From Candidatus Aenigmatarchaeota archaeon (GTDB lineage Archaea > Aenigmatarchaeota > Aenigmatarchaeia > QMZP01 > QMZT01): a stretch of 64,000 nucleotides of DNA. The notes under the pieces are model-generated. The model was not told where the DNA came from, made no database searches, and saw only the letters and a list, made by a program, of their open reading frames with translations. Each line of letters starts with the position of its first letter. Positions within the stretch are counted from its first letter, which is position 1. The stretch is from assembly GCA_026397315.1 (NCBI GenBank), contig JAPLVC010000007.1:1-64000 (forward strand), in the 5' to 3' direction. The translations under genes and the position numbers were made by a program. Positions 44,970-45,977 of this stretch are shown piece by piece.

Positions 44970-45977
44970 TTGGGAGAAACTGAAGAGGATGTTCTCGAAG
45001 CCCTCGCGATGGTCATAATAGTTGTCCTGGGCCTGATAGTGCTGATCGTATCGATAATGCCCAGTAGTTTTACCGGCACCAGCGCCGGGGCGTTTGCTGT
45101 GGCGACTGGCATATCATATTCTATAAGCGGGCTGTCGCTAGCGGACGAAGGCTCGATGACAAGATATCTCAACGGCAGCTACGACATCGAGATAGGCCTG
45201 GAAGAGGATTCTGACGGTCCCCTGAAGAATTATTACATAAGGGCGACGGCTTACGGAAAAGGAAACCCGCTCAGCCCTATAGACAAGATAATTTTCATAG
45301 GCGACATGCAGCTGGACAAAGACCCGACAAAACTGGTAAACGTCACGTACATCAGCCTCACGAAAAGCTACGGCAAGCCTGTCAGGATAGTCAAGACCAC
45401 GGAAACTCGCTTCTCGGACGCCCTTTGCAAAGAGCCGACGCCTGAGAAAATAAAGGATTACATCCAGACATACTCGCCGGACAAGGAAGAACAGAAATGG
45501 ATAAAGGCGATAATAATGACTGAAAGCGGTTATGTCCATTGCAGCGGTTCGACCGTGGGGGCGTTCGGCTTCATGCAGCTCATGGAAATCGCCGCGAGGG
45601 ACGTGGGCATAAGCGACAGGTTCGACCCTGAGCAGAACATCGATGGCGGCGTGAGATACTACAGGAAGCTCGTGCAAAAATACGAATCCTACGACGACAA
45701 ATACGTGCTGGCTGTCGCCAGTTACAACTGCGGCAAGATAGGCACTCTCGTGTCGCAGAACTGCGACGCGCAGAACATATACATCGGCTGCTGGGAAAAG
45801 GCCGTCAGGGAGTTCACGCGTGAGAAGGAGTGCCAGGGCAGCGGCGGCAAGGAAACTTACAACTACGTGGACAGGGTAAAGACATGCGTGAAATATTACG
45901 AGCAAAACCCGGAATGCTACAACAGTCCGGGCACGGGCAGCTCGTGCCCTAAAAGCAGTGACTGCGGAAACTGGTGA
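44970..45977 (+). CDS. pilin-like protein fused to lytic transglycosylase (SLT/GH23) domain
   Basis: N-terminal TM; 'IKAIIMTES', 'GAFGFMQLM', 'FDPEQNIDGGVRY', 'AVASYNCG', 'ETYNYV.RV'. Confidence 0.88.
   Translation: MGETEEDVLEALAMVIIVVLGLIVLIVSIMPSSFTGTSAGAFAVATGISYSISGLSLADEGSMTRYLNGSYDIEIGLEEDSDGPLKNYYIRATAYGKGNPLSPIDKIIFIGDMQLDKDPTKLVNVTYISLTKSYGKPVRIVKTTETRFSDALCKEPTPEKIKDYIQTYSPDKEEQKWIKAIIMTESGYVHCSGSTVGAFGFMQLMEIAARDVGISDRFDPEQNIDGGVRYYRKLVQKYESYDDKYVLAVASYNCGKIGTLVSQNCDAQNIYIGCWEKAVREFTREKECQGSGGKETYNYVDRVKTCVKYYEQNPECYNSPGTGSSCPKSSDCGNW

Follow-up and report, generated by a model that had tools for sequence, protein, structure and literature searches.

The closest described relatives of the protein reported here are the bacterial lytic transglycosylases Slt70, MltC, MltE and MltF (PF01464, GH23), with which it shares the fold and the motifs ES, GLMQ, AYNxG and a Tyr-containing motif IV. 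Unlike these bacterial family-1 enzymes, it is encoded by an archaeon in whose genome murein synthesis genes were not found, and it carries 8-10 conserved cysteines, including those of ES-x-x-x-H-C and YNCG, together with a Cys-rich tail. The partner module also differs: the archaeal SLT domain is fused to a pilin-like module, whereas the bacterial enzymes bear a lipoprotein, superhelical or ABC-binding-protein-like module. Specialised lytic transglycosylases, such as VirB1, BfpH and EtgA, also serve the pilus and secretion systems of bacteria, where they open the producer's own sacculus for assembly. The present locus resembles them in that an SLT enzyme is encoded among filament or secretion apparatus genes; in contrast to the hosts of VirB1, BfpH and EtgA, sacculus synthesis genes were not found in the Aenigmatarchaeota genome.

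A second described system is provided by PilB and PilC of Streptococcus sanguinis, modular type IV pilins that combine a pilin with an added functional module (Raynaud et al. 2021, PMC8179133). These pilins share their architecture with the SLT protein: a short linker connects a small pilin or pilin-like module to the functional module grafted onto it. By contrast, they are bacterial, possess the N-methylation motif (IPR012902) and display adhesive modules, whereas the SLT protein is archaeal, starts with an M-G leader and carries a wall-cutting enzyme. Searches with Pfam and NCBIfam detected neither IPR012902 nor a pilin family motif in the SLT protein, whose resemblance to modular pilins is, in our assessment, one of architecture only. 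The words 'transglycosylase' and 'archaea' are absent from the main text of PMC8179133.

SLT proteins have been reported in other archaea. Those of Woesearchaeota and Pacearchaeota (fam00969), which reach 3,000 aa, have been interpreted as anti-bacterial (PMC8204110, PMC9723730, PMC10936187). Both fam00969 and the protein described here come from DPANN archaea with reduced genomes and contain a murein lytic transglycosylase domain, but fam00969 comprises giant extracellular proteins of other phyla, whereas the present protein is a 335-aa fusion from Aenigmatarchaeota, in a fixed operon with M23 and PG-binding genes. Archaeal peptidoglycan hydrolases can kill bacteria, as described for the Halogranum M23 + PG_binding_1 protein 'Woldo' (PMC12352652). 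Like the present operon, the Halogranum hydrolases are archaeal, murein-directed, of bacterial ancestry and exported (here by prediction), and genes neighbouring the SLT gene carry the same two domain families. The haloarchaeal hydrolases are patchy, recently shuffled single proteins with a wall-binding domain, in contrast to a multi-gene operon that appears to be vertically inherited; because it lacks a recognised wall-binding domain, the SLT protein would escape the modular-hydrolase screen of PMC12352652. Peptidoglycan and enzymes of this kind are both absent from a 2026 survey of type IV filaments in archaea (PMC13705601). Relatives of the protein are already labelled as SLT-domain proteins by NCBI, and in the literature we found no description of a pilin-like SLT fusion, a degenerate leader or a conserved operon. 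SLT domains in DPANN are already known; the pilin-like fusion and its operon appear to be new. Our analysis points, with reasonable though far from complete confidence, to an exported, disulfide-stabilised and competent lytic transglycosylase that acts on bacterial peptidoglycan, has a pilin-like module as its carrier and has been vertically inherited within one lineage.

The window, the whole 64,000-nucleotide stretch of DNA that was analysed, corresponds to contig 6 of a 1.05-Mb genome of Aenigmatarchaeota (DPANN), in 7 contigs and 91% complete. NCBI names two homologues as proteins of Candidatus Aenigmarchaeota/Aenigmatarchaeota; one of these (P0018) agrees in length and motifs with a protein of a same-family genome and appears to be that protein. 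The SLT gene is the fourth of an operon in which the gaps or overlaps between genes range from -14 to +27 nt:

43234..48941, plus strand: whole operon (p91, p163, p245, SLT, p260, M23, PG_binding_1)
43234-43509, plus strand: p91, small pilin-like protein
43560-43991, plus strand: p163, small pilin-like protein
44361-44942, plus strand: p245
45981-46763, plus strand: p260
46750-47781, plus strand: M23 peptidase (Pfam 5.5e-27)
47775-48941, plus strand: PG_binding_1 protein (Pfam 7.9e-8)

The SLT gene itself was resolved into the following features:

44953..44964, plus strand: Shine-Dalgarno-like GGAAGGCGGGTG, 5 nt before the TTG start of the SLT ORF
44970..45977, plus strand: SLT ORF, 335 aa, TTG start; pilin-like module, SLT lytic transglycosylase and Cys-rich tail
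44970..45050, plus strand: N-terminus, aa 1-27, with M-G, the acidic stretch ETEED, an LEA motif and a hydrophobic helix
45081..45395, plus strand: alpha/beta module, aa 38-142, in the AlphaFold2 (AF2) model; putative pilin-like scaffold
45396..45440, plus strand: linker, aa 143-157, of low model confidence, carrying the conserved Cys153
45441..45905, plus strand: SLT/GH23 family-1 lytic transglycosylase domain, aa 158-312 (Pfam, Foldseek, phmmer)
45522..45524, plus strand: catalytic Glu185 (GAA) of the ES motif, position confirmed by script
45906..45974, plus strand: Cys-rich tail, aa 313-335 (C316, C326, C332)

The GGAAGGCGGGTG motif also precedes the ATG or TTG start in the DNA of 4/4 close homologues (L033-L036), and in 3/4 of them this start lies within one codon of an in-frame stop. 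The annotated TTG start of the SLT ORF is sound on this comparison.

The C-terminal half of the protein had been annotated at first pass as an intact lytic transglycosylase, and sequence, modelled fold and conservation agreed with this assignment. Pfam SLT (PF01464) matches aa 173-256 with E=1.3e-15 and 57.4 bits against a cut-off of 21.3 (59.8 bits for the ORF in the whole-genome Pfam SLT scan, in which the gene is single-copy), and NCBIfam returned partial matches to MltF, MltC and Slt. The signature motifs are complete and were found where or as they had been reported: IMTES with E185-S186, the Glu codon falling exactly at 45522-45524, GFMQ (GxMQ) at aa 200, ASYNCG at 250 and ETYNYV (ETxNYV) at 295. 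An AF2 model was built on a 14-row alignment (mean pLDDT 81), in which the SLT domain, aa 158-312, has 10-residue block means of pLDDT of 73-98. With this model, Foldseek matched the SLT module to MltF, MltC, Slt70, Cj0843 and MltE (E 4e-6 to 1e-3, ~170 columns), and the goose-lysozyme-like helical fold of family-1 lytic transglycosylases was recovered by model and search alike. The nearest solved chains in a phmmer search of the PDB were a phage tape-measure SLT and MltF, Glu185 aligning to the ES of MltF. The catalytic Glu is present in 35/35 family members, compared with 146/157 SLT domains from outside the family, and all four motifs are kept across the 35 members, some of which carry GLMML, like MltF. 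The dN/dS ratio of the gene is 0.15-0.33; against the closest relative, for which dS is unsaturated, the N-module has a value of 0.15 and the SLT module one of 0.31. These ratios indicate that purifying selection maintains the gene on both modules. With no sign of a dead enzyme in its sequence, the SLT domain is predicted to be catalytically competent.

Two relatives depart from the family pattern. One (L020:9454-10086, in genome G009) retains ES and GLMQ and lacks the whole conserved Cys core, with L/W/S at positions 153/191/254 and no aligned tail; the same genome holds a second, SLT-only copy on a different contig. In a same-genus genome (G004:C2:261381-261967), only three short fragments of the SLT homologue were detected, one of the matches containing a TAA, and the gene may be a pseudogene in that genome.

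Gene neighbourhoods of the relatives were taken from genome searches and one metagenome scan. The order SLT, p260, M23, PG-binding is kept in 21 loci, 12 from relatives' genomes and 9 from metagenomes, and the breaks in this order coincide with contig ends or with an SLT homologue that blast missed and a separate genome search locates there (L017, L018). The 12 genome loci come from other genera. ScpB often adjoins the conserved block, and the small upstream genes were detected in about half of the 21 loci. Identity between genera is 25-35% for SLT, versus 52-66% for ScpB and 80% for TyrRS, so that, judged by these alignments, the operon proteins diverge fast. The synthetase that served as the yardstick is encoded at 49739-50863, and its 80% identity was measured against the corresponding protein of another genus. 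We also compared the PG_binding_1 stretch of the last operon protein (~aa 85-200) with loci L014-L025, L038 and L040: it is unmatched in most relatives and covered only in L015, L021 and close metagenome loci. The wall-binding domain seems to have been inserted secondarily, into a scaffold that predates it.

The N-terminal half had been described as pilin-like, a claim that holds for the family and less well for the leader of this particular protein. All operon proteins possess an N-terminal hydrophobic helix, and most of them a K/R-G leader. In the AF2 model of the SLT protein, a hydrophobic helix (about residues 1-28) is followed by a second helix (38-57) that packs on a five-stranded sheet (61-142); pLDDT is 83 for the N-domain model and falls below 50 at aa 144-152 of the linker. 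An N-glycosylation sequon at N68 is conserved (NGS/T in 11/14 alignment rows). VIA-align of the N-module against 48,161 PDB representatives ranked type IV minor pilins or pseudopilins as 7 of the top 9 chains, with weak scores (Z 3.7-4.3). The first match is the modular minor pilin PilB of S. sanguinis (7b7p), the other six pilin chains are EpsI, XcpV, TTHA1222, PilA4, GspI and TT_C0855, and PilE, K122-4, ComZ, ComP and PilA5 come next. No family match to the N-module was found in Pfam or NCBIfam, and a Pfam search at E<=10 with the N-module, p91, p163, p245 and p260 gave chance transmembrane matches only. Foldseek of the N-module against the PDB returned no match at E<=0.001; the lysozyme inhibitor PliI, its top row (prob 0.38, TM 0.22-0.28), was rejected as noise. 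An HMM of the N-module revealed no homology to the other operon proteins past the hydrophobic helix, and the ESM Atlas yielded 0.79-score DPANN hypothetical proteins, below the useful range.

Most distant homologues display a canonical K/R-G class III leader aligned with the Gly of M-G (8/10 in genome loci), for instance MKRTG, MRMKG, MNMKKG or MKKKG, followed by the hydrophobic helix. In the subclade of the SLT protein, the leader is reduced to M-G/A alone, then acidic residues, and no basic leader is present. From these alignments, aa 1-27 appear to be a degenerate class III-type signal or anchor. The family can thus be considered pilin-like, with the qualification that the modelled fold of the N-module is only weakly similar to that of pilins. 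Because the N-terminus is acidic and lacks a basic class III leader, processing of the SLT protein, and even its topology, is uncertain.

The products of the first two operon genes start with very short leaders, M-N-T-S-LEIVVV for p91 and M-R-M-A-LEIVVV for p163, in which LE and a hydrophobic run resemble the LEA motif of the SLT protein. Both are Cys-rich in the C-terminal half, and neither protein has a family match in Pfam. On sequence, p91 and p163 are candidate major subunits.

How would the enzyme be displayed? One answer, which we put forward tentatively, is that the SLT protein is a near-leaderless modular pilin that, with the M23 and PG-binding subunits, sits on an archaeal type IV filament and drills bacterial walls. 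The genome encodes one prepilin peptidase (Peptidase_A24, at C7:111102-111431) together with five ATPases (T2SSE) and five platform proteins (T2SSF) above cut-offs; all are on other contigs, no pilus ATPase, platform gene or prepilin peptidase being found in or next to the operon. If true, the pilus-mounted reading would make bacteria, and not archaea, the hosts or the prey of this Aenigmatarchaeota lineage. Alternatively, the same enzyme could act on foreign peptidoglycan without being a filament subunit, its hydrophobic helix serving as an uncleaved signal anchor and its alpha/beta domain as a stalk, so that it would be tethered to the archaeal membrane. It would then resemble the class-III-signal sugar-binding proteins of the Sulfolobus bindosome, and archaeal non-pilin proteins with class III signals do exist (PMC3047682). 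The M-G/A start of the subclade with its acidic residues, the lack of assembly genes within the operon and the weak fold similarity to pilins are consistent with this tethered arrangement. However, distant homologues retain canonical K/R-G leaders, the gene is accompanied by small pilin-like genes (in the roughly half of loci where these were detected), and pilins consistently top the fold matches of the N-module; overall we regard a membrane tether as a minority possibility. For the favoured exported enzyme, we infer a C-terminus outside the cell, disulfides, activity and target, as well as the mode of anchoring, in a filament or in the membrane.

The protein contains ten cysteines (153, 191, 254, 265, 274, 288, 306, 316, 326 and 332), and each of them is conserved in every one of 13 close homologues of full length. 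Eight of them (153, 191, 254, 265, 274, 288, 316 and 332) are retained in 31-34 of 35 family members; C153 is invariant in both alignments and present in 34/35 members. C306 and C326 occur together in 13/13 close homologues, to which C306 is confined; C326 also aligns in six distant family members. The Cys-rich tail was correctly recognised at first pass: C316, C326 and C332 all lie within aa 313-335, C316 and C332 being family-wide. Co-loss is informative, as one member lacks 254 and 288, another 265 and 274, and a third all four, suggesting the pairs C254-C288 and C265-C274; one sequence, P0033, is at odds with the scheme. The remaining pairs are likely C153-C191 and C316-C332, with C306-C326 as a further predicted pair in the subclade of the SLT protein. 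Cysteine counts are even in 10/10 relatives taken from genomes. The Cys of YNCG had been singled out as atypical; in 157 SLT domains outside the family the YNxG position is A in 121, C in 13 and W in 11, which makes a cysteine there unusual, though not unique.

The protein had also been described as studded with extra cysteines. They are present and conserved, but they are typical of the exported proteins of this organism rather than special to this enzyme. Indeed, in a survey of a crude ORF set of the same genome, sorted by TM segments, ORFs with a single N-terminal TM contain 3.07% Cys versus 1.27% in ORFs without TM segment, with even:odd counts of 57:25 versus 246:292; at 2.99% Cys, the SLT protein stands at the 71st percentile of its single-TM class. 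Two DsbA-like (Thioredoxin_4) proteins are encoded (G000:C4:24898-25386 and G000:C1:18030-18512), one anchored by its N-terminus and bearing a CPFC site, the other of 312 aa with hydrophobic N-terminal segments and a CFVC site. VKOR was not found in the genome. These two proteins likely constitute an extracytoplasmic disulfide-forming system.

Within the limits of a genome that is 91% complete, no transpeptidase/PBP, FtsW/RodA (SEDS) or GT51 gene was found, and only one Mur-ligase-like gene was detected; M23 is single-copy, and both it and SLT are located within the operon. Because searches of the archaeal genome revealed neither a murein polymerase nor a transpeptidase, the substrate would be foreign, that is, bacterial peptidoglycan. 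The hydrophobic helix and small alpha/beta domain of the pilin-like module are joined by the short linker to the enzyme module, which would cut MurNAc-GlcNAc bonds, while the M23 enzyme would cut the peptide cross-links. Local opening of the bacterial wall may then lead to attachment, penetration, killing or feeding. The muropeptide salvage genes AnmK and Amidase_2 were not found in the genome, which weakens a pure feeding role; a nutrient-salvage role is accordingly unsupported.

The same genes could instead remodel a wall polymer belonging either to their own cell or to a host that is an archaeon. Most of the known hosts of DPANN are archaea, and the GH23 family, which includes chitinases and lysozymes, can cut chitin-like glycans. 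Yet PBP, SEDS and GT51 genes were not found, SLT, M23 and PG_binding_1 are all murein-directed families and stand together in the operon, and the lytic transglycosylase motifs are intact, making an archaeal polymer an improbable target. In this Aenigmatarchaeota lineage, a conserved, selected operon for cutting murein points to bacteria as partners or prey. Action on bacterial walls, the reading we favour, would extend the idea of archaea wielding peptidoglycan hydrolases against bacteria, and it would extend that of pilins as carriers of modules to archaea and to enzymes. The SLT domain is moreover a compact lytic transglycosylase, predicted to be naturally disulfide-stapled, that could be directly expressed and assayed.

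It had been claimed that the gene has host-like codon usage and does not derive from a recent bacterial transfer. Both statements were borne out. Composition of the gene is native (GC 52.5%, 59th percentile of the genome; GC3, 63rd; synonymous-codon score, 85th). A search of 1.84 billion representative proteins recovered the full-length architecture only in a small family; for ordinary SLT domains, the best bacterial identity is ~56% over ~80 aa, and the first genome scan gave Desulfofustis, 51% identical over 78 aa. In a search of 201 genomes of the phylum, members were present in 15/16 and 15/23 genomes of two taxonomic families belonging to one order, and the other families of the order that were searched gave none; elsewhere in the phylum, SLT-only matches were detected in 5/151 genomes. 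The native composition, the operon conserved across two archaeal families and the limited identity to bacterial domains together argue against a recent transfer.

Phylogeny is in agreement with this conclusion. In the SLT-domain tree, 23/25 N-module proteins group with three other sequences (SH-aLRT 96). A later tree, to which the relatives' genes were added, was constrained to hold all 37 family rows together; it was better than the free search (p-AU 0.71), so that a single origin of the family's SLT domain is not rejected. The nearest outside sequences in the tree are Gastranaerophilales/Melainabacteria SLTs, on a branch with support of only 70. Taken together, the data suggest a single ancient acquisition and fusion, with vertical inheritance thereafter: the family would have arisen once in Aenigmatarchaeota and descended with an operon of class-III-signal proteins. 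That the gene instead came from a bacterium by recent transfer or mis-binning, or is a decaying relic without current function, is hardly credible: SLT domains are overwhelmingly bacterial and the gene is in pieces, with a stop codon, in the same-genus genome G004, but these readings are largely refuted by the native codon usage, the archaeal genes and intron-bearing tRNA of the same contig (which also holds ScpB and class-I tRNA synthetases), synteny that holds across genera, the grouping of the family in the tree, dN/dS below 0.35 and a catalytic Glu universal in the family.

Further observations concern the surroundings of the operon. A 973-aa ORF with a class III leader (40279-43200, minus strand) is divergent from the operon and has low GC (39%; GC3 36%). 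The presence of an M-G-K-R-K-G leader inside this ORF suggests that translation begins later. Several relatives also carry the ORF beside the operon, with identities of only 23-36%. Marked low-GC islands (30-38%, against ~51% GC for the genome) are located at window positions 10000-16000, 20000-24000 and 40000-42000. A 156-nt tRNA match at 6262-6417, obtained with Rfam and missed by ARAGORN, fits an intron-containing archaeal tRNA. Finally, two class-I W/Y-type tRNA synthetase genes are found within 8 kb, at 49739-50863 and 56491-57780.
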